Positions 40,749 through 57,788 of a stretch of DNA of 64,000 bases are shown here, one piece after another. The stretch is from assembly GCA_000146045.2 (NCBI GenBank), contig BK006941.2, positions 864,001 to 928,000 of the forward strand, given 5' to 3'. The notes below the pieces were generated by a model, which saw only the letters and a program-made list of their open reading frames with translations, searched no databases and was not told the DNA's origin. The stretch's first letter is position 1; every line of letters begins with the position of its first letter. Both the position numbers and the translations under genes were made by a program. This DNA comes from TPA_inf: Saccharomyces (lineage: Eukaryota).

Positions 40749-41236
40749 TTTTCTTTGTGTCTGCTGTGCTTTGTACTACCAAGAGAGAATAGCAAGAGTG
40801 AAATTTGAAAGTTAAACAATACAATAAAGAAAAGTGACTGGCGTATGCAAGAAAGGGGAATGGGTATAAAAAATACAAGAACGGCAGAAAAAATAAAAGA
40901 AACAGGAGAAACAAACAATGGTAACTGTACTAAAACCAATACCAGATATATATTTCATACTTATTAAAAAGCGTTAAGAAACGAAGCGTAAAAACGTAAG
41001 AAAAAGAATGACTATATAACGGTAGGTCTTCGACTCATTTTTTTCTTCCTACATGCAAACGACAAATACGGGTAATGCACATTTCGCTTATTGGGTTCTT
41101 CCCTTTCCTTTTTTCCATTTTTTTCTTTCTGGCTGTCGCTAGCCTTTCTACTTCCTCCGCACATACAGTTTTCAGCACAGTATAGATAGCTGTGCAGCCA
41201 GATAGAAGCAAAAGAGAAGTCAATTGCAAAAAAAAT

Positions 41237-41683
41237 ATGGACTCGTACTCAATAACAAACGTAAAATACCTGGATCCGACTGAATTGCATCGTTGGATGC
41301 AAGAAGGACACACTACTACGCTGAGGGAGCCTTTCCAGGTAGTGGATGTGCGAGGCTCAGATTATATGGGGGGCCATATCAAGGACGGATGGCACTACGC
41401 CTATTCGCGCCTTAAGCAGGATCCGGAGTACTTACGTGAGCTAAAGCACAGATTGTTGGAAAAGCAAGCGGACGGCCGCGGAGCGCTGAACGTGATTTTC
41501 CATTGTATGTTATCGCAGCAGCGCGGACCGTCTGCAGCGATGCTGCTGCTTCGGTCGCTTGACACGGCGGAACTTTCTCGCTGTCGTCTATGGGTGTTGC
41601 GTGGGGGGTTCTCGCGCTGGCAATCCGTATACGGTGACGACGAGAGCGTTACGGCGGGTTACCTACCCGATCTGTGGCGTTGA
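41237..41683 (+). CDS. YCH1: Rhodanese/Cdc25-like phosphatase domain protein; start at MDSYSITNVKY (track ORF begins 15 codons upstream at 41192)
   Basis: Rhodanese-like fold with CxxxxxR-type loop (HCMLSQQRGPSAA); I recall the protein as 148 aa. Confidence 0.82.
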   Translation: MDSYSITNVKYLDPTELHRWMQEGHTTTLREPFQVVDVRGSDYMGGHIKDGWHYAYSRLKQDPEYLRELKHRLLEKQADGRGALNVIFHCMLSQQRGPSAAMLLLRSLDTAELSRCRLWVLRGGFSRWQSVYGDDESVTAGYLPDLWR

Positions 41684-41720
41684 CAGGTTTACACAATCGC
41701 ACGTGATCATATATTTGCCA

Positions 41721-41933: not shown

Positions 41934-44774
41934 ATGGCTGGTCAAGTGTTGGACGGCAAAGCATGCGCTCAGCAGTTTAGAAGCAATATTGCTAATGAAA
42001 TCAAAAGCATTCAAGGTCACGTGCCTGGGTTTGCACCTAACCTTGCCATCATTCAAGTAGGCAACAGACCAGACTCAGCCACATATGTACGCATGAAGCG
42101 TAAGGCAGCTGAAGAGGCCGGCATTGTTGCTAATTTCATTCATTTAGATGAATCCGCTACTGAATTTGAAGTTCTGCGTTACGTGGACCAGCTGAATGAG
42201 GACCCACATACACACGGTATTATCGTGCAACTACCATTACCCGCTCATTTGGACGAGGATAGAATCACCTCGAGAGTGTTGGCAGAAAAGGACGTGGACG
42301 GGTTCGGGCCCACCAACATTGGCGAATTGAATAAGAAGAACGGACACCCATTCTTTTTGCCCTGCACGCCCAAGGGGATCATTGAGCTGCTTCACAAGGC
42401 CAACGTCACGATTGAAGGTTCCCGGTCCGTTGTGATCGGAAGATCTGACATTGTTGGCTCTCCTGTTGCAGAATTGTTAAAATCTCTAAACTCCACCGTC
42501 ACCATCACTCATTCTAAAACCCGTGATATCGCATCATACTTACACGACGCGGACATCGTAGTCGTTGCCATCGGCCAACCAGAATTTGTGAAGGGTGAAT
42601 GGTTCAAACCAAGAGACGGCACTTCCAGTGATAAGAAAACCGTGGTAATTGATGTTGGCACCAACTACGTTGCTGATCCTTCCAAAAAGTCCGGTTTCAA
42701 ATGTGTTGGTGACGTTGAGTTCAATGAAGCAATCAAATACGTCCATCTAATCACTCCAGTGCCCGGTGGTGTGGGCCCCATGACGGTGGCTATGTTAATG
42801 CAAAATACCTTGATTGCTGCCAAACGCCAAATGGAAGAATCCTCGAAGCCTTTGCAGATTCCTCCCTTGCCATTGAAGTTGCTAACACCTGTTCCTTCCG
42901 ATATAGACATCTCCAGAGCACAACAGCCAAAGCTTATCAACCAGCTTGCTCAAGAATTGGGTATTTACTCTCATGAGTTGGAGCTGTACGGACATTACAA
43001 GGCCAAAATTTCTCCTAAAGTCATCGAAAGGCTGCAGACGCGCCAAAATGGTAAGTACATCTTGGTGTCTGGTATCACACCAACACCACTGGGAGAGGGT
43101 AAATCCACTACAACAATGGGTCTTGTCCAGGCACTAACGGCTCACTTGGGCAAGCCAGCCATTGCGAACGTCAGACAACCCTCCCTAGGACCCACTTTAG
43201 GTGTCAAAGGTGGTGCTGCGGGTGGTGGTTATTCCCAAGTCATCCCAATGGACGAATTCAACTTACATTTGACTGGTGACATTCACGCCATTGGTGCGGC
43301 TAACAACCTACTTGCTGCCGCTATTGACACTAGAATGTTCCATGAGACCACTCAAAAGAACGACGCTACCTTCTACAACAGACTAGTGCCTAGAAAGAAC
43401 GGAAAGAGAAAGTTTACTCCCTCCATGCAAAGAAGATTGAACAGACTGGGTATTCAAAAGACCAACCCCGATGATCTAACACCCGAAGAGATCAACAAAT
43501 TCGCCAGATTGAACATTGACCCGGACACTATTACTATCAAGAGGGTGGTCGATATCAACGACAGAATGTTAAGACAAATCACCATTGGTCAAGCCCCTAC
43601 CGAGAAGAACCACACAAGAGTTACTGGATTCGATATCACCGTTGCTTCTGAATTGATGGCTATTCTTGCTCTTTCAAAGGACTTGAGGGACATGAAGGAA
43701 CGTATTGGAAGAGTCGTTGTTGCTGCTGACGTAAACAGGTCTCCAGTCACTGTTGAAGATGTGGGTTGTACCGGTGCCTTAACCGCTTTATTAAGAGACG
43801 CTATCAAGCCCAACTTGATGCAAACTTTAGAAGGTACTCCTGTCTTGGTCCATGCCGGCCCATTTGCCAACATCTCTATCGGTGCCTCTTCTGTTATTGC
43901 TGATCGCGTGGCTTTGAAATTGGTTGGTACCGAGCCAGAGGCAAAAACAGAAGCTGGTTATGTGGTTACTGAAGCAGGGTTCGATTTCACTATGGGTGGT
44001 GAAAGATTCTTCAACATCAAGTGCCGTTCCTCTGGATTGACACCTAATGCTGTGGTCTTGGTTGCTACTGTTAGGGCATTGAAGTCACACGGTGGTGCTC
44101 CAGATGTCAAACCTGGCCAACCTTTACCTTCCGCATACACTGAAGAGAATATCGAGTTTGTCGAAAAAGGTGCCGCTAACATGTGTAAACAAATTGCCAA
44201 CATTAAGCAATTTGGCGTCCCCGTCGTTGTCGCAATTAACAAGTTTGAAACTGACACTGAAGGTGAAATAGCCGCCATTAGAAAAGCCGCTTTGGAAGCT
44301 GGTGCATTTGAAGCCGTAACCTCTAACCATTGGGCCGAAGGTGGTAAAGGTGCTATCGACTTGGCCAAGGCCGTCATCGAAGCTTCCAACCAACCAGTGG
44401 ACTTCCATTTCCTATATGACGTTAACTCCTCCGTTGAAGACAAATTAACTACTATCGTTCAAAAGATGTACGGTGGTGCCGCAATCGATATCTTGCCTGA
44501 AGCACAACGCAAGATTGACATGTACAAGGAACAAGGTTTCGGTAACTTGCCAATTTGTATCGCCAAGACACAATACTCTTTATCCCACGATGCAACTTTG
44601 AAAGGTGTTCCAACCGGGTTCACTTTCCCCATCAGAGACGTCAGATTGTCTAATGGTGCTGGATACTTATACGCTCTTGCCGCCGAAATACAAACCATTC
44701 CTGGTTTGGCTACCTATGCTGGTTACATGGCCGTGGAAGTCGATGATGACGGTGAGATCGATGGCCTGTTCTAA
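41934..44774 (+). CDS. ADE3: Cytoplasmic trifunctional C1-tetrahydrofolate synthase (methylene-THF dehydrogenase / methenyl-THF cyclohydrolase / 10-formyl-THF synthetase)
   Basis: 946-aa ORF; N-terminal DH/CH domain, C-terminal FTHFS domain with P-loop TPLGEGKST; recognised sequence. Confidence 0.95.
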   Translation: MAGQVLDGKACAQQFRSNIANEIKSIQGHVPGFAPNLAIIQVGNRPDSATYVRMKRKAAEEAGIVANFIHLDESATEFEVLRYVDQLNEDPHTHGIIVQLPLPAHLDEDRITSRVLAEKDVDGFGPTNIGELNKKNGHPFFLPCTPKGIIELLHKANVTIEGSRSVVIGRSDIVGSPVAELLKSLNSTVTITHSKTRDIASYLHDADIVVVAIGQPEFVKGEWFKPRDGTSSDKKTVVIDVGTNYVADPSKKSGFKCVGDVEFNEAIKYVHLITPVPGGVGPMTVAMLMQNTLIAAKRQMEESSKPLQIPPLPLKLLTPVPSDIDISRAQQPKLINQLAQELGIYSHELELYGHYKAKISPKVIERLQTRQNGKYILVSGITPTPLGEGKSTTTMGLVQALTAHLGKPAIANVRQPSLGPTLGVKGGAAGGGYSQVIPMDEFNLHLTGDIHAIGAANNLLAAAIDTRMFHETTQKNDATFYNRLVPRKNGKRKFTPSMQRRLNRLGIQKTNPDDLTPEEINKFARLNIDPDTITIKRVVDINDRMLRQITIGQAPTEKNHTRVTGFDITVASELMAILALSKDLRDMKERIGRVVVAADVNRSPVTVEDVGCTGALTALLRDAIKPNLMQTLEGTPVLVHAGPFANISIGASSVIADRVALKLVGTEPEAKTEAGYVVTEAGFDFTMGGERFFNIKCRSSGLTPNAVVLVATVRALKSHGGAPDVKPGQPLPSAYTEENIEFVEKGAANMCKQIANIKQFGVPVVVAINKFETDTEGEIAAIRKAALEAGAFEAVTSNHWAEGGKGAIDLAKAVIEASNQPVDFHFLYDVNSSVEDKLTTIVQKMYGGAAIDILPEAQRKIDMYKEQGFGNLPICIAKTQYSLSHDATLKGVPTGFTFPIRDVRLSNGAGYLYALAAEIQTIPGLATYAGYMAVEVDDDGEIDGLF

Positions 44775-50738: not shown

Positions 50739-51020
50739 ACTGGCTCTATTTCCGTTTTATTCTTACAGACAGCTTATACTACAAGTTAGTTGGACAAAAG
50801 CTAAAAGACGGAAAACGAAAACGCAAAATGAAAATAAAACCAACTCTCATTACAATTCATCCTAGAACACTTACACATCTGTTTTGCACTGCATAGCATT
50901 ACATTTCTTGCATATCTATCTATTCGAGAAAAAAAAAAAAAGGCATCGAGTGAATTTTTCACCTTGATAAAAAAGCCCTTACTAACCCTACAATAAATTG
51001 TGCCGAAACCCTCTGGAGTT

Positions 51021-51056
51021 TTCTAGAATATTCTAGCCCCATCAGGGCTAGAATAT
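51021..51056. promoter_or_regulatory. Perfect 3-unit heat-shock element TTCtaGAAtaTTC (51021-51033) embedded in an 11-bp inverted repeat ATATTCTAGCC(n7)GGCTAGAATAT, in the YGR210C-ZPR1 divergent promoter
   Basis: Seen directly in sequence; nTTCnnGAAnnTTCn is the canonical Hsf1 site. Confidence 0.5.
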
Positions 51057-51240
51057 CCTAAAAGTTTATAGTTGACGAAAATTTTTCAGCGATGAGATGC
51101 ACATTTATAATGCTATGATGTTCAACGCAAAGGAAATCATAGCGTTATCGGGTAGGTTCGCATCGTTAGCAATAGCTAGTCGCATATATACACAGAGATA
51201 CATATTATACCTATACCGTTAAGAAATAGGATAGAAAATA

Positions 51241-54511: not shown

Positions 54512-55465
54512 TTATTCGCTCTTTGAAGCGAGATCTTCTTCGATAGACGTCACCTCAACGTCAGGATAGTCGGTGCCGTCAAATCTTGCTGATTGTTGCG
54601 CTTGAATAGACTCTTCATGTATTCTAAAAATGTTAATTAGTGGGAACGCCACAATAAAAATTAATACGAGTAAAAACATTGGTAAACCATCAAAAATATA
54701 AAGATACCACTCGTGCGAGGCAATTTCTCCGTCATAACCCTGAATAAATTCAACAGCTCTGACGATCGACCTAATTAAAATCAGGAAACTGTTCACCAAT
54801 AAAGCAATGTTTAGGTATTTCCAACTACCATACCTTACCGATACATTGGTTGGTTTTTTGCTCATCTTGAAAATGAACAAAACCTCATTTATAATGAAGA
54901 GACCAAAAAAAGCAATTTGAATGAACAAACCAGCTGTAACGAGATGAGAACCAGAAGATGCACTTGTCACTTTAGACATCATAGCACCACCAATTGCTTG
55001 TAATAGAAGACTGCCTACATCGCCAATCACAAATATTGTAGTATTGAATCTAGCGGGCATGATCATTAAGTTTTCTGCGAACAGCAGAGTAGCCATTCTA
55101 CCAAAAATCATGTAAATACTGGCAGCATATAATGTTGGAGACACCAGCAAGAAAACCGTTTGAATAATATAGGGGTTTAGTAGTGTGGTGTCTTTGCTTG
55201 ATTTACATCTAAACGCAAAGCCCACACACTCAACAAAACACCCAAATATAAAGGGAATGTACGCTCCTGCTAAGTTTACCGTACCGTAATACCGCAATAC
55301 GGGTTGGGACTTCATAAGAGAGCCAACTCTCCTTTTACTTTTCACAGAATAATGGAATAGTAAAATTACAAATGCTACCCCTGATACTGCAAAAAGTACC
55401 GTAAAAAGTATACTCGCACCTAATTCCGGAGTGTATCTATATAACTCGAAGCCGTCTTTTGCCAT
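54512..55465 (-). CDS. RTA1: Rta1, 7-TM lipid-translocating exporter family protein
   Basis: 317-aa ORF with 7 predicted TM segments; RTA1-family similarity; recognised sequence. Confidence 0.88.
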   Translation of the reverse strand: MAKDGFELYRYTPELGASILFTVLFAVSGVAFVILLFHYSVKSKRRVGSLMKSQPVLRYYGTVNLAGAYIPFIFGCFVECVGFAFRCKSSKDTTLLNPYIIQTVFLLVSPTLYAASIYMIFGRMATLLFAENLMIMPARFNTTIFVIGDVGSLLLQAIGGAMMSKVTSASSGSHLVTAGLFIQIAFFGLFIINEVLFIFKMSKKPTNVSVRYGSWKYLNIALLVNSFLILIRSIVRAVEFIQGYDGEIASHEWYLYIFDGLPMFLLVLIFIVAFPLINIFRIHEESIQAQQSARFDGTDYPDVEVTSIEEDLASKSE

Positions 55466-56574
55466 GTTCGAAGTGGTGAAAAGTGCTGACTGTCTATTAC
55501 ATACTTTTACAGGGTTTATTATTATAGAATGAAACAGGCAAGGTATCTTATCCCTTTATTATGAAAACTATATATACGCATAAGTCTTTTGCTGCATGAT
55601 AAGCCCCTTCCCAAGAATATGACAACCTCTTATTGTTCTTTTCACCAAAGATCCACGGAACTCATCTTTAGCAAGTGAGGCTTGAAATATCACAGATATC
55701 ATTGTGAATACCGCATTGAGCAGATTGTTGACAGCGGGCATCTTACTAACAGGCGCAATCTAAAGAAGCCGCGAAAAAAAAAAGAACACGCTAAACGATT
55801 CACCCATGCCAGCCAAGTGTAGATTTGTTTGTAGAGGAAAACAGTTGATGAGCAATTTACAGTGTTTTTTTATCTTAGTAATATTCATCAAAATTCATAG
55901 GAAATAGTCAATGATGCATGTCTGAAAACAAAACGACCTATATACCTTATTGTGGCTTGTAAAGTTTAAACTTAAAAATAAACTTTCTTTTTGAATGATA
56001 GATATTTCCGCTTTTGGATGCGCTTCACAAGAATAGAAGCAAAAAGTCCGGTTAAAATTGAAATATGATAAAAACCCAAACATATTAAAAAACCCAGACA
56101 TAAAGAAAAAAACTTTGAAAAAAAAAGTATTATGCCGCTGAGCGCGCCACGTTAAAAGCTCGAATTCTTCGCATTGGTAGTAGCGCAAAGTCCAATGAGC
56201 GCACCTCAAGTGAGAAACGCAGGCCCAGAGATTCTCCAGGCAGGAAGGAATTGGGACAGATCCTGCCTGGAGGGATGGAGGAATTTACTTCGTAGGCTGG
56301 AACAGGCTCATCTCAGCCAACGATTGTAAATGTGCAGGGCCATCGTTACAATCCTGCGCACCCTACCATGGATACCAGAATCCCGTCGTGTTCCCAATTG
56401 TGAGTAGTACAGTGGCCTGCTGCCGGGCAGATAGTAGCAGGGCAGGACACTTGCCAGATCCCGTAGCAAGGATGCTTATAATATATCGAAATGTAGCATT
56501 GTTAGTTTACTTCGTAAACTGCCCTTGTAGAGTGAGGTATAGCTTAGAAAATAGCAAACTAAATAGAGAGCGAA

Positions 56575-56664
56575 ATGTCCTTACCAGCTACTTTTGACTT
56601 GACTCCAGAAGATGCCCAACTTTTGTTGGCTGCTAACACTCACTTAGGTGCTAGAAACGTTCAA
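56575..56664 (+). CDS. RPS0A: Ribosomal protein S0-A (uS2), exon 1 (30 codons, [30 protein letters not shown])
   Basis: ATG at 56575; exon ends ...GTTCAA followed by 5' splice site GTATGT at 56665; not in ORF track because it is shorter than the track cutoff. Confidence 0.92.
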
Positions 56665-57119
56665 GTATGTTATACTCATTCCCGATTATATAATAGAGTA
56701 ATGTGTGATTGAAAACAGTTCGAGTGAAAGAATAGCCACAACCAGGTTTCCCGCCAACCAAACGGAATGCTGGGATAGCATTTTTCAGGCTGAATAAGAA
56801 GAGAAATATATGAACAATCATTAAAACAGTTTGAAACTCCAGCTAATTATCAGCGAATATTTTGCCAATAGACTTTCTAATTGTATTATGTTATTAAATT
56901 TTAAATCGCTAATGAAAAAAAAAAACAAACCTTTGGTATTAAACCTCTTTCAATGAAATCAATTAATTCCGGTACCTATTCTTCCGACGCTGTTAGCCAA
57001 CTATAAATGCCATTTTTTCATAGTACATTAATTTGAATCAGTTGATCATTCACAGCATATACCAAGTGTACGTTTTTGAATCTTTTATACTAACTTTTTC
57101 TTCTTTAATTTTGTTTCAG
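56665..57119 (+). other. RPS0A: RPS0A spliceosomal intron, 455 nt (GTATGT ... TACTAAC at 57087-57093 ... TTTCAG)
   Basis: Canonical yeast 5' splice site, branch point TACTAAC 26 nt upstream of 3' CAG; joining restores continuous uS2 reading frame. Confidence 0.92.
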
Positions 57120-57788
57120 GTTCACCAAGAACCATATGTTTTCAACGCAAGACCAGATGGTGTCCACGTTATCAACGTTGGTAAGACCTGGGAAAAATTG
57201 GTTTTGGCTGCCAGAATCATCGCTGCCATTCCAAACCCAGAAGACGTTGTTGCCATCTCTTCCAGAACTTTCGGTCAAAGGGCTGTTTTGAAGTTCGCTG
57301 CCCACACCGGTGCTACCCCAATCGCCGGTAGATTCACTCCAGGTTCTTTCACCAATTATATCACCCGTTCTTTCAAGGAACCAAGATTAGTTATTGTCAC
57401 CGACCCAAGATCAGATGCTCAAGCCATCAAGGAAGCTTCTTACGTTAACATCCCTGTCATTGCTCTAACTGATCTTGACTCTCCATCAGAATTCGTCGAT
57501 GTCGCTATCCCATGTAACAACAGAGGTAAGCACTCCATTGGTTTAATCTGGTACTTATTGGCTAGAGAAGTTTTGAGACTAAGAGGTGCTTTAGTTGACA
57601 GAACTCAACCATGGTCCATCATGCCAGATTTGTACTTCTACAGAGACCCTGAAGAAGTTGAACAACAAGTTGCTGAAGAAGCTACCACCGAAGAAGCTGG
57701 TGAAGAAGAAGCCAAGGAAGAGGTTACCGAAGAGCAAGCTGAAGCTACTGAATGGGCTGAAGAAAATGCTGACAACGTCGAGTGGTAA
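57120..57788 (+). CDS. RPS0A: Ribosomal protein S0-A (uS2), exon 2 ([15 protein letters not shown] ... acidic C-terminal tail ... NVEW)
   Basis: In-frame continuation after intron; 222 codons plus stop; total 252 aa as expected for Rps0. Confidence 0.93.

Follow-up and report, generated by a model that had tools for sequence, protein, structure and literature searches.

[quoted passage not shown] The mean GC content of this intervening region (IVR) is 48.6% in Hmo1-enriched RPGs versus 36.1% in Hmo1-limited RPGs (Kasahara 2011, PMC3105432), and the breadth of Hmo1 binding has been attributed to G+C content together with IFHL motifs (Reja 2015, PMC4579351; Kasahara, PMC3105432). According to Knight 2014 (PMC4117944), many degenerate Hmo1 motifs on both strands are spread over 150-200 bp, and two to three fragile nucleosomes are present. 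[quoted passage not shown] This upstream shift of TSS and PIC, and the fragile nucleosomes, were shown for RPS5, for RPL27B and as a class average (Kasahara 2011, PMC3105432; Knight 2014, PMC4117944).

RPS0A is among the genes covered by the ChIP-exo study of Reja 2015 (PMC4579351), in which Table S2 lists two Rap1 sites and two TATA mismatches for this gene. Among the RPGs, RPS0A stands at the 75.9 percentile for Hmo1, 75.2 for Fhl1 and 69.3 for Ifh1, with a low Rap1 occupancy (14.6 percentile), and its Hmo1 occupancy of 31157 tags compares with approximately 40-1000 in Hmo1-limited RPGs; these are promoter-level values, summed from 0 to -400 bp from the mapped TSS. Its paralogue RPS0B is also listed with two Rap1 sites and stands at the 97.8 percentile for Hmo1 (Reja 2015, PMC4579351, Table S2). 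In the hmo1 fpr1 double deletion, RPS0A binds less Fhl1/Ifh1 (Kasahara 2020). Here, we analyze the region upstream of RPS0A within a stretch of 64,000 nucleotides of S. cerevisiae DNA (the window), in which a preliminary description had noticed a GC-rich, palindrome-dense block.

Results

Composition and Architecture of the RPS0A Upstream Region

Between RTA1 (54512-55465, minus strand) and the RPS0A start codon (56575), a block of 345 bp reaches a GC content of 53.9%, compared with a mean of 38.6% in the 64-kb window (Table 1). The flanking DNA has a GC content of 33.5% on the RTA1 side (55466-56130) and 32.3% on the RPS0A side (56476-56574), and only 0.4% of the 311-bp windows across the 64 kb are as GC-rich as the block. 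The preliminary description had placed a segment of about 300 bp, much richer in GC than its surroundings, at 56160-56470, and the GC content of 53.4% in this segment bears this out. It had also considered the segment as not explained by any feature. However, two tandem Rap1 sites (56072-56102), just upstream of its coordinates, had been overlooked, and these sites, a poly(dA) tract and a TATA-like element bracket the block, which is rich in IFHL motifs. With the tandem Rap1 sites in place, the block can be defined as the intervening region between Rap1 and core in an Hmo1-enriched RPG promoter.

Table 1. Coordinates of the features in and around the GC-rich block upstream of RPS0A (positions within the window).
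Feature	Position	Strand	Basis or remark
Rap1 site 1, AAACCCAAACATA (core ACCCAAACA at 56074-56082)	56072..56084	+	motif scan; facing RPS0A
Rap1 site 2, AAACCCAGACATA (core ACCCAGACA at 56092-56100)	56090..56102	+	motif scan; direct repeat
Poly(dA:dT)-rich tract separating the GC block from the Rap1 sites	56103..56129	+	read from sequence
G+C-rich intervening region (IVR)	56131..56475	none	GC; length and GC in six species; GGCAG density; literature
10-mer TGCCGCTGAG at the 5' edge of the block	56133..56142	+	invariant in 6/6 species
Perfect 12-bp inverted repeat CTCCAGGCAGGA / TCCTGCCTGGAG	56234..56272	none	two IFHL-like motifs (TCCAGGCAGGA) in opposite orientation
GGCTG / CAGCC, inverted IFHL cores (GGCNG)	56295..56318	none	motif scan
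8-bp inverted repeat GATTGTAA / TTACAATC	56322-56329 / 56346-56353	none	specific to S. cerevisiae
Best-conserved part of the block: CTGCCGGGCAG, invariant AGTAGCAGGGCAG (56433-56445), CACTTGC (56448-56454)	56420..56456	+	three IFHL cores
TATA-like element TATAATAT	56477..56484	+	two mismatches to TATAWAWR; -98 from ATG
26-nt core-promoter/leader element TTAGTTTACTTCGTAAACTGCCCTTG	56502..56527	+	25/26 nt (56503-56527) invariant in six species
RPS0A exon 1	56575..56664	+	sequence and ORF; intron 56665-57120

The order of elements towards the gene is the poly(dA) tract, the block with 53.9% GC and an AT-rich core with 32% GC, whose start is marked by the TATA-like element. The two Rap1 sites, located at about -500 from the RPS0A ATG, both face the gene with a start-to-start spacing of 18 bp. 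We compared the region in six species, namely S. cerevisiae, L006 (Logan SRR10997049, the closest sister sequence and probably S. paradoxus), S. mikatae, S. kudriavzevii, S. eubayanus and S. uvarum. The core of Rap1 site 1 is invariant in all six, and ACCCA.ACAT of site 2 is likewise kept in all of them; the poly(dA:dT) tract has a GC content of 21-39% throughout, its sequence itself not being conserved. None of the motifs in our scan corresponds to the invariant 10-mer at the block's 5' edge. By the distances given in Knight 2014 (about 40-100 bp downstream of Rap1), this 10-mer would lie in the expected Fhl1/Ifh1 zone. In the intergenic region, the motif scan found no Abf1, Reb1, Tbf1, Fhl1 (GACGC / YKYGCGTC), Sfp1, PAC or RRPE motif.

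At the other end of the block, 77% of the columns are invariant over 56430-56459 in the six species, and the GGCAG places in 56420-56456 are conserved in five to six of them. The 26-nt element downstream of the TATA-like element contains the palindrome AGTTTAC-TTC-GTAAACT, and its conservation does not extend to N. dairenensis or T. globosa. The ORF at 56575 is RPS0A, i.e., the downstream gene is a ribosomal protein gene, and a Ribosomal_S2 (PF00318) gene is also the neighbour in S. kudriavzevii, S. eubayanus, S. mikatae, S. uvarum, N. dairenensis and T. globosa. The region thus combines the tandem Rap1 sites, the GC-rich IVR and the GGCNG motifs on both strands that characterize an Hmo1-enriched, category I promoter.

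IFHL Motifs

The block has a GGCAG density of 14.5/kb, 12-fold that of the rest of the window (1.18/kb), and the only 345-bp windows with at least five GGCAG are those overlapping it. Seven GGCNG motifs (four on the plus and three on the minus strand) are present, five of which are GGCAG; the IFHL oligo TCTAGGCAGAG was taken from PMC11430298. When compared with dinucleotide-preserving shuffles of the block, the GGCNG count showed no significant excess (P 0.08-0.37), which means that motif density is inseparable from GC and dinucleotide composition here. Therefore, we judged motif enrichment against GC-matched windows and against the remainder of the window.

Evolution of the Block

Across the six species, the block measures 342-352 bp with a GC content of 54-57%. 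Its 5' half has an identity to S. cerevisiae of 0.67-0.46 and evolves at about the same rate as the RPS0A intron (0.74-0.47), whereas the 3' half (0.85-0.69) lies above the intron. The layout extends beyond the genus: N. dairenensis has a Rap1 core at -501 and a GC-rich stretch from -450 to -100, and T. globosa, a pre-duplication species, has a Rap1 core at -480 and five GGCNG at -279 to -218. We propose that selection holds base composition, length and motif density but not the exact sequence. The block may thus serve as an example of selection that steadies these properties while the 5' half drifts at approximately the rate of an intron.

The preliminary description had also considered that the block could be a decayed relic, the source of which might be a coding gene, foreign DNA or a mobile element. 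A GC content far above the intergenic norm for the genome would fit such an origin, but the longest ORFs of 51-69 aa have no Pfam match above threshold (in a Pfam scan, the four longest ORFs that touch the block gave only noise below the threshold), there is no Rfam match, and the interspecies indels are not multiples of three. The minus-strand ORF at 55895-56209 is present as had been described and encodes 104 aa. GC content and length are maintained in six species and the layout is common to the RPS0 promoters of N. dairenensis and T. globosa, which is unlike a decaying relic in an AT-biased genome, and we regard this origin as next to negligible.

No Support for a Structured RNA

Another proposal of the preliminary description was a stable structured ncRNA, which would be encoded by either strand independently of RPS0A. 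The fold of the minus strand of 56160-56470 (z = -2.49; 1/100 shuffles folds as well) could be taken as a sign of such an RNA, as could the plus strand of the S. uvarum block (z = -4.0) and the 3' third of the block, which is more conserved than the intron. However, we rejected the minus-strand value as an RNA signal: the full S. cerevisiae block gave -0.85 and -1.22, the minus strand thus falling to -1.2, and z is near 0 in the sister species L006, S. mikatae and S. kudriavzevii. Negative values (-1.7 to -4.0) came from S. eubayanus and S. uvarum. RNAalifold assigned a covariation term of -0.55 kcal/mol, and the consensus fold reached -42 kcal/mol, the single sequence about -116 kcal/mol. Outside S. 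cerevisiae, the described hairpins keep only 3-5/12 and 2-5/8 Watson-Crick pairs. GGCTG/CAGCC is intact in S. cerevisiae, L006 and S. mikatae; in S. kudriavzevii, S. eubayanus and S. uvarum, the pairing is disrupted with no compensatory change. Overall, 71% of cells in these hairpins pair (shuffles: 68.6%), and a 6-7-nt indel removes the outer pairs. The search with Rfam cmscan (E<=10) found nothing within the block, and its hits over 55400-57200 were three chance-level matches to bacterial sRNAs, all in the RPS0A intron. ARAGORN found no tRNA or tmRNA, in agreement with the preliminary description, which had noted no tRNA A/B boxes. The conserved parts of the block are IFHL motifs and promoter elements, and Hmo1/FIS reportedly cover the region, with the PIC excluded in the wild type. 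With no covariation, no conserved hairpin, no consistent folding excess and no Rfam match, an ncRNA is highly improbable here.

A structured 5' leader had been suggested as well; for the RPS0A mRNA, such a leader would be long and its TSS would lie near the Rap1 sites. The block does lie upstream of RPS0A on the sense strand, and initiation upstream, within the IVRs, is known from Hmo1-enriched RPGs in hmo1 deletion strains. However, S. cerevisiae has seven plus-strand ATGs at -443 to -84 and the other species have 5-11; in all six, the ATG-free stretch ahead of the start codon is limited to 76-84 nt. Such upstream ATGs fit poorly with a highly translated RP mRNA that has a long leader. Moreover, the conserved TATA-like element is located downstream of the block (-98), the published occupancy, determined upstream of the mapped TSS over 0 to -400 bp, locates Hmo1/FIS there, and no hairpin is conserved. 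Our literature search on RPS0A together with RTA1, and on a mapped RPS0A TSS, yielded nothing usable. We consider a leader of this kind extremely improbable.

Inverted Repeats

The palindromes of the preliminary description are largely real. Its longest stem was given as 11 bp with a 17-nt loop; this stem exists, but is actually 12 bp long (arms 56234-56245 / 56261-56272) and has a loop of 15 nt. The 8-bp repeat was found exactly as described, and the near-palindrome CTGCCGGGCAG is present at 56420-56430. For GGCTG/CAGCC, the second arm (56314-56318) was placed correctly, whereas the first arm (56295-56299) had been shifted by one base. Among 1000 dinucleotide-preserving shuffles of the block, none contained a 12-bp stem (0/1000), and stems of at least 8 bp (two observed, 0.14 expected; P=0.005) and of at least 6 bp (six observed, 2.4 expected; P=0.03) are also in excess. 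In all 64 kb of the window, an inverted repeat that is perfect over 10 bp or more and has a loop of 3-40 nt occurs only twice, and repeats of this kind number 0-3 per 9-11 kb locus elsewhere. Three of the four described palindromes have GGCNG in both arms, in opposite orientation.

In other species the picture is mixed. The S. eubayanus block contains a perfect inverted repeat of 12 bp (P=0.001) and the S. uvarum block one of 11 bp (P=0.003), both corresponding to CCAATGGGCCC, the arms of which are conserved between the two species while the loop differs. These long perfect repeats are located at different places in the block in the S. cerevisiae lineage and in the S. eubayanus/S. uvarum lineage. 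No inverted-repeat excess was found in the blocks of L006, S. mikatae and S. kudriavzevii (longest stem P 0.18-0.49).

Within S. cerevisiae, the 12-bp stem is polymorphic (two alleles among four sampled sequences): the ancestral allele pairs at 10/12 positions only, and a derived TG>CA change at 56237-56238, which lies within a local cluster of lineage-specific changes, turns this quasi-palindrome into a perfect 12/12 repeat. The 12-bp inverted repeat is young and restricted to the S. cerevisiae lineage. Quasi-palindrome correction is a short template-switch mutation (Ripley model), and the TG>CA change looks like a natural templated mutation of this type. As in the model, an adjacent two-base change perfects a 10/12 repeat; the difference is that here the mechanism is read from the pattern of two alleles in four S. 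cerevisiae sequences. We propose that the palindromes of the reference strain are by-products of motif copies, because copies of the same G-rich motif sit on opposite strands, and of the recent templated TG>CA change. This polymorphic change is the one small new point of our analysis.

Motif content alone does not fully explain an inverted-repeat excess in two independent lineages. The repeats might be functional DNA structures that, under the negative supercoiling at a highly transcribed promoter, extrude as cruciforms or four-way junctions, which the HMG boxes of Hmo1 would prefer as structure-specific sites, and palindromes would then be selected recurrently in the Hmo1 platform, a refinement rather than a replacement of the promoter explanation. 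Long perfect repeats at different positions of the same 345-bp block in two lineages, their rarity in the window and at other loci, and the conserved arms with a differing loop in S. eubayanus and S. uvarum would all be in line with such docking. However, L006, S. mikatae and S. kudriavzevii lack the repeat excess, yet have the same GC content and length, and a perfect stem cannot be required because it is polymorphic in S. cerevisiae, where the ancestral allele pairs at 10/12 positions. Moreover, 12-bp stems whose loops measure 3-15 nt are short for a cruciform to extrude stably in vivo. Reja and Kasahara, in addition, ascribe the breadth of Hmo1 binding to G+C content and IFHL motifs, and docking through cruciforms thus appears unlikely. 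It is also doubtful, though conceivable, that long perfect palindromes arise repeatedly in the Hmo1-coated GC-rich spacer, either because this negatively supercoiled DNA with its repeated motifs is prone to template switching or because DNA that readily forms cruciforms is favoured as a structure-specific docking place for the Hmo1 HMG boxes. If this were true across the Hmo1-enriched promoters, it would tie the known affinity of Hmo1 for four-way junctions to a feature in the sequence of its strongest targets in nature. The TG/CA allele pair is ready for asking whether palindromes matter to Hmo1 binding.

Discussion

The analysis of the RPS0A upstream region suggests, with a probability of roughly 0.88, that the block belongs to the G+C-rich IVRs found in Hmo1-enriched, category I RPG promoters. 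Its architecture is ordinary and has already been described, and the block is not a hidden RNA gene. The idea of an unusual RP-gene UAS in the preliminary description therefore survives as far as the promoter element is concerned, but the architecture is the usual one. The same description had named the Rap1/Fhl1 platform of RPS0A as an alternative that ChIP might reveal, and the promoter-level occupancy largely agrees with this, although Rap1 reaches only the 14.6 percentile. This low Rap1 occupancy, as well as the absence of a canonical Fhl1 (GACGC) or Sfp1 motif, counts against the promoter reading, as do the GGCNG counts, which do not significantly exceed those of the shuffled block, and the inverted-repeat excess that motif content leaves partly unexplained.

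We infer that the IVR is the Hmo1/Fhl1-Ifh1-Sfp1 platform and fragile-nucleosome zone of the RPS0A promoter, which might operate as follows. Rap1 would be recruited by the two tandem sites, as their sequence and the published ChIP-exo data suggest, and the poly(dA:dT) tract may keep the flank nucleosome-free. The GC-rich stretch, in which GGCNG (mostly GGCAG) occurs on both strands, would be coated by several molecules of Hmo1, an HMG-box protein, together with Fhl1/Ifh1/Sfp1; occupancy of the RPS0A promoter is high in the published data, and the breadth of the coat over the whole block would be that of the class. This coat, or the fragile nucleosomes, may mask the spacer, leaving the PIC to assemble only at the AT-rich core from the TATA-like element onward, by analogy with RPS5, RPL27B and the class as a whole. 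Under such a mechanism, selection would act on base composition, length and motif density rather than on the exact sequence. The result is mainly a negative one, as a GC-rich, palindrome-bearing intergenic block can be removed from the candidates for hidden RNA genes.

In comparison with the IFHL promoters of Reja 2015 (PMC4579351), RPS0A shares the GGCNG motifs (seven, with five GGCAG), a poly(dA:dT) tract that separates the block from Rap1, and two Rap1 sites, but it differs in its Rap1 occupancy (14.6 percentile) and in being without the Fhl1 motif (YKYGCGTC). The IVRs of RPS5 and RPL27B (Kasahara 2011, PMC3105432) resemble the block in that they are located between the Rap1 UAS and an AT-rich core, are long (about 345-370 bp here) and GC-rich, and belong to RPGs with high published Hmo1 occupancy; the block is somewhat richer in GC (53.9%) than the class mean of 48.6%, and RPS0A is likened to them by sequence and occupancy. 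The category I promoters of Knight 2014 (PMC4117944), a label that for RPS0A rests on the Reja occupancy table, show the same order of tandem Rap1 sites, Fhl1/Ifh1 zone and Hmo1 zone, with many degenerate G-rich Hmo1/IFHL motifs on both strands, and the spacer described here is long enough for about two fragile nucleosomes. RPS0A clearly illustrates, at a single locus, the published rule of a long GC-rich spacer in Hmo1-enriched promoters of ribosomal protein genes.

Anatomy and conservation of the block

The GC-rich block in the RTA1-RPS0A spacer (1109 bp) is the Hmo1/Fhl1/Ifh1 platform, rich in G+C and dense in IFHL motifs, of a category I ribosomal protein gene (RPG) promoter. In its best delimitation it has a GC content of 53.9%, compared with 33.5% toward RTA1, 32.3% in the 99 bp preceding the ATG and 38.6% in the whole window, which bears out the GC-rich segment recognized in the preliminary description (56160-56470); only 0.4% of the 311-bp windows across the 64 kb match that segment in GC content. 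The GC-richest stretch of the window, at 41192-41683, lies in coding DNA: it holds a 163-aa ORF with a Rhodanese domain, just upstream of a trifunctional C1-THF synthase ORF (41934-44774), and reaches 57.6% per 311 bp, with 53-59% over 41300-41699. Directly 5' of the segment as first drawn, and overlooked there, lie two tandem Rap1-type sites with a start-to-start spacing of 18 bp. With these sites upstream and TATA-like, AT-rich DNA downstream, the block thus coincides exactly with the interval from the Rap1 UAS to the core promoter. The IFHL core (GGCNG) occurs seven times in the block, on both strands, and five of the seven are GGCAG, which reaches 14.5 per kb in the block versus 1.18 per kb in the remaining window; every 345-bp window of the 64 kb with at least five GGCAG overlaps the block.

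Features of the RTA1-RPS0A region (window coordinates unless a sequence is named)
Feature	Position	Remarks
RTA1	54512-55465	minus strand
Rap1-type site 1, AAACCCAAACATA	56072-56084	oriented toward RPS0A
Rap1-type site 2, AAACCCAGACATA	56090-56102	oriented toward RPS0A
poly(dA)-rich tract	56103-56129	after the Rap1-type sites
GC-rich block	56131-56475
10-mer TGCCGCTGAG	56133-56142	5' edge of block
Repeat CCAATGGGCCC(C) / (G)GGGCCCATTGG	L003:3141-3167 (S. eubayanus); L008:8277-8303 (S. uvarum)	aligns with ~56192-56215
12-bp inverted repeat	56234-56245 / 56261-56272	loop 15 nt
Arm 1 allele CA, CTCCAGGCAGGA	56237-56238	window and L012 (S. cerevisiae)
Arm 1 allele TG, CTCTGGGCAGGA	56237-56238	L013 (GCA_029991515.1) and L014 (S. 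cerevisiae)
GGCTG/CAGCC, first arm	56295-56299	one base from the preliminary coordinates
TATA-like TATAATAT	56477-56484	-98 from ATG; AT-rich turn downstream of block
26-nt element TTAGTTTACTTCGTAAACTGCCCTTG	56502-56527	-73 to -48 from RPS0A ATG
RPS0A	ATG 56575; intron 56665-57120	plus strand

We obtained syntenic RTA1-RPS0A spacers through the RTA1 and SLI1 orthologues and compared those of S. mikatae, S. kudriavzevii, S. eubayanus, S. uvarum and the closest sister sequence (L006, probably S. paradoxus) with that of S. cerevisiae. The anatomy of the block and its evolutionary pattern are observed directly here. In all six species the block measures 342-352 bp with 54-57% GC, and is flanked by the AT-rich Rap1/poly(dA) segment on one side and a core of ~30% GC on the other. 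No variation is seen in the Rap1 cores, at the block's 3' end (AGTAGCAGGGCAG, CACTTGC), in a large part of the core promoter or in the 10-mer TGCCGCTGAG (~30-40 bp 3' of the second Rap1 site), which had no match among the motifs scanned; a related TGAGCGC(G/A)CC lies at 56196-56205. The identity values thus place the 5' half of the block not above the intron in conservation, and the 3' half above it.

Identity to S. cerevisiae
Region	L006	S. mikatae	S. kudriavzevii	S. eubayanus	S. uvarum
Block 5' half	0.67	0.52	0.48	0.46	0.50
RPS0A intron	0.74	0.62	0.55	0.47	0.47
Block 3' half	0.85	0.72	0.69	0.69	0.70

Length and composition maintained while much of the sequence drifts is the pattern that would be expected of a platform recognized through its composition and the density of its motifs. 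The same layout recurs in the RPS0 promoters of N. dairenensis (Rap1 core at -501, GC-rich from -450 to -100) and of the pre-duplication species T. globosa (Rap1 core at -480, five GGCNG at -279 to -218).

RNA, leader and relic readings

Besides an unusual RP-gene UAS, the preliminary description had considered a stable ncRNA, a structured 5' leader or a decayed relic, and these three find no support. For a structured RNA, the minus strand of the 311-nt segment gave a folding z of -2.49, but the full block gave -0.85 / -1.22 in S. cerevisiae. Among the sisters, values were close to 0 for L006, S. mikatae and S. kudriavzevii, and negative ones were limited to S. eubayanus and S. uvarum (-1.7 to -4.0, with -4.0 in S. 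uvarum). The block has no Rfam family match at E<=10, a tRNA search of it found none, and the RNAalifold covariation term is -0.55 kcal/mol. The named hairpins are not conserved, with 3-5 of 12 Watson-Crick pairs retained in the other species for the 12-bp stem and 2-5 of 8 for the 8-bp stem, and the GGCTG/CAGCC pair lost in three species without compensation, which also speaks against a structured leader. As a 5' leader of RPS0A the block would place seven AUGs before the start codon, and only the final 76-84 nt are ATG-free in all six species. A relic would not keep composition and length, because mutational bias in the S. cerevisiae genome runs toward AT, and both are maintained across the six species; moreover, no ORF in the block is supported by Pfam and the interspecies indels are not multiples of three.

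Origin of the palindromes

The inverted repeats first noticed are real, although the longest stem has 12 bp rather than 11 and the first arm of the third was displaced by one base. Three of those four palindromes are IFHL cores in facing orientation (CTCCAGGCAGGA / TCCTGCCTGGAG; GGCTG / CAGCC; CTGCC-G-GGCAG), and each arm of the 12-bp stem (TCCAGGCAGGA) is identical at 8 of 11 positions to the IFHL oligonucleotide TCTAGGCAGAG used for Hmo1 binding assays (PMC11430298). In 1000 dinucleotide-preserving shuffles of the block no stem reached 12 bp, and such shuffles lead one to expect 0.14 stems of 8 bp or longer where the block has two; in the whole 64-kb window, only two perfect inverted repeats with short loops have 10 bp or more. 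The other one, ATATTCTAGCCC / GGGCTAGAATAT (51028-51056), lies upstream of a ZPR1-type ORF (51241) and overlaps a heat-shock-element-like TTCTAGAATATTCTAG, followed by an RRPE-like GAAAATTTTTC and a PAC-like GCGATGAGATG (51020-51102).

The 12-bp stem is young. Identity between S. cerevisiae and L006 falls to 52.5% over 56230-56285 versus 80.6% in the remaining block, and a S. cerevisiae-specific insertion of 6-7 nt (56268-56283; tandem pair TGGAGGGA | TGGAGGAA), one of a local cluster of lineage-specific changes, adjoins arm 2. Arm 1 is polymorphic within S. cerevisiae; outgroups carry TGG at this site, so TG is ancestral and CA derived, and with the two-base replacement TG>CA a 10/12 quasi-palindrome becomes a perfect stem. 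Adjacent changes that perfect a quasi-palindrome are the classical signature of templated (template-switch) mutation, and by its pattern alone TG>CA looks like one, a minor curiosity. S. eubayanus (12 bp) and S. uvarum (11 bp) have a different perfect inverted repeat elsewhere in the block, which contains two inverted CCAAT boxes and has a loop that differs between the two species. Palindromes therefore come and go in the block, and the simplest account is that one G-rich motif copied on both strands creates many near-palindromes, some of which are perfected by occasional templated mutations. [quoted passage not shown]

Elements flanking the block

Downstream of the block, 25 of the 26 nt of TTAGTTTACTTCGTAAACTGCCCTTG (56503-56527) are invariant in the six Saccharomyces species; conservation of the element does not extend to N. 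dairenensis or T. globosa. It contains the palindrome AGTTTAC-TTC-GTAAACT, i.e., two inverted forkhead-like GTAAAC cores, and could be a core-promoter/TSS-region element or a leader hairpin. Just 3' of the TATA-like element, ATGTAG (an ATG with an immediate stop; 56491-56496, -84) is kept in position in six species. On the RTA1-proximal side (55640-55700), four species show good conservation of GTGAGGCTTG (~55677-55686) and of a CCACGGAAC-like stretch close by, both presumably RTA1 promoter elements. RTA1 products of 115, 117 or 193 aa instead of 317 aa in some S. cerevisiae assemblies (P0059, P0066-P0068) suggest segregating loss-of-function alleles or split gene calls.

Comparison with known RPG promoters

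At Hmo1-enriched RPGs, the intervening region (IVR) was defined as the DNA that separates the UAS from the core; strong Hmo1 binding depends on it, several Hmo1 molecules bind there, and without Hmo1 the PIC assembles within it, moving the TSS upstream (Kasahara et al. 2011, PMC3105432). Category I promoters have the order Rap1, Fhl1/Ifh1, Hmo1, and two or three of their nucleosomes are MNase-fragile; their multiple Hmo1 motifs, G-rich and degenerate, occupy both strands across 150-200 bp (Knight et al. 2014, PMC4117944). Poly(dA:dT) tracts are located between Rap1 and FIS/Hmo1, and the number of Rap1 sites at Hmo1-enriched genes tends to be two (Reja et al. 2015, PMC4579351). Factor occupancy at RPS0A is published at the promoter level: Table S2 of the latter study lists two Rap1 sites, percentile ranks of 14.6 (Rap1), 75.2 (Fhl1), 69.3 (Ifh1), 35.0 (Sfp1) and 75.9 (Hmo1), and an Hmo1 occupancy of 31157 versus roughly 40-1000 at Hmo1-limited RPGs, with RPS0B at the 97.8 percentile for Hmo1. 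Fhl1/Ifh1 binding at RPS0A is reduced in the hmo1 fpr1 double deletion (Kasahara et al. 2020, PMC7357790). By analogy with the class, Hmo1 would cover exactly the block and mask it from the PIC at RPS0A.

The preliminary description was sound in its observation and only partly so in its interpretation. The published promoter-level occupancy largely identifies the block as the Rap1/Fhl1 platform of RPS0A, an outcome that the description had itself named as refuting its reading. Elements of this kind are already known, and RPS0A has previously been listed as Hmo1-enriched; the block's layout of Rap1 UAS, poly(dA), GC-rich IFHL-dense spacer and core is that of the described class of Hmo1-enriched RPG promoters.
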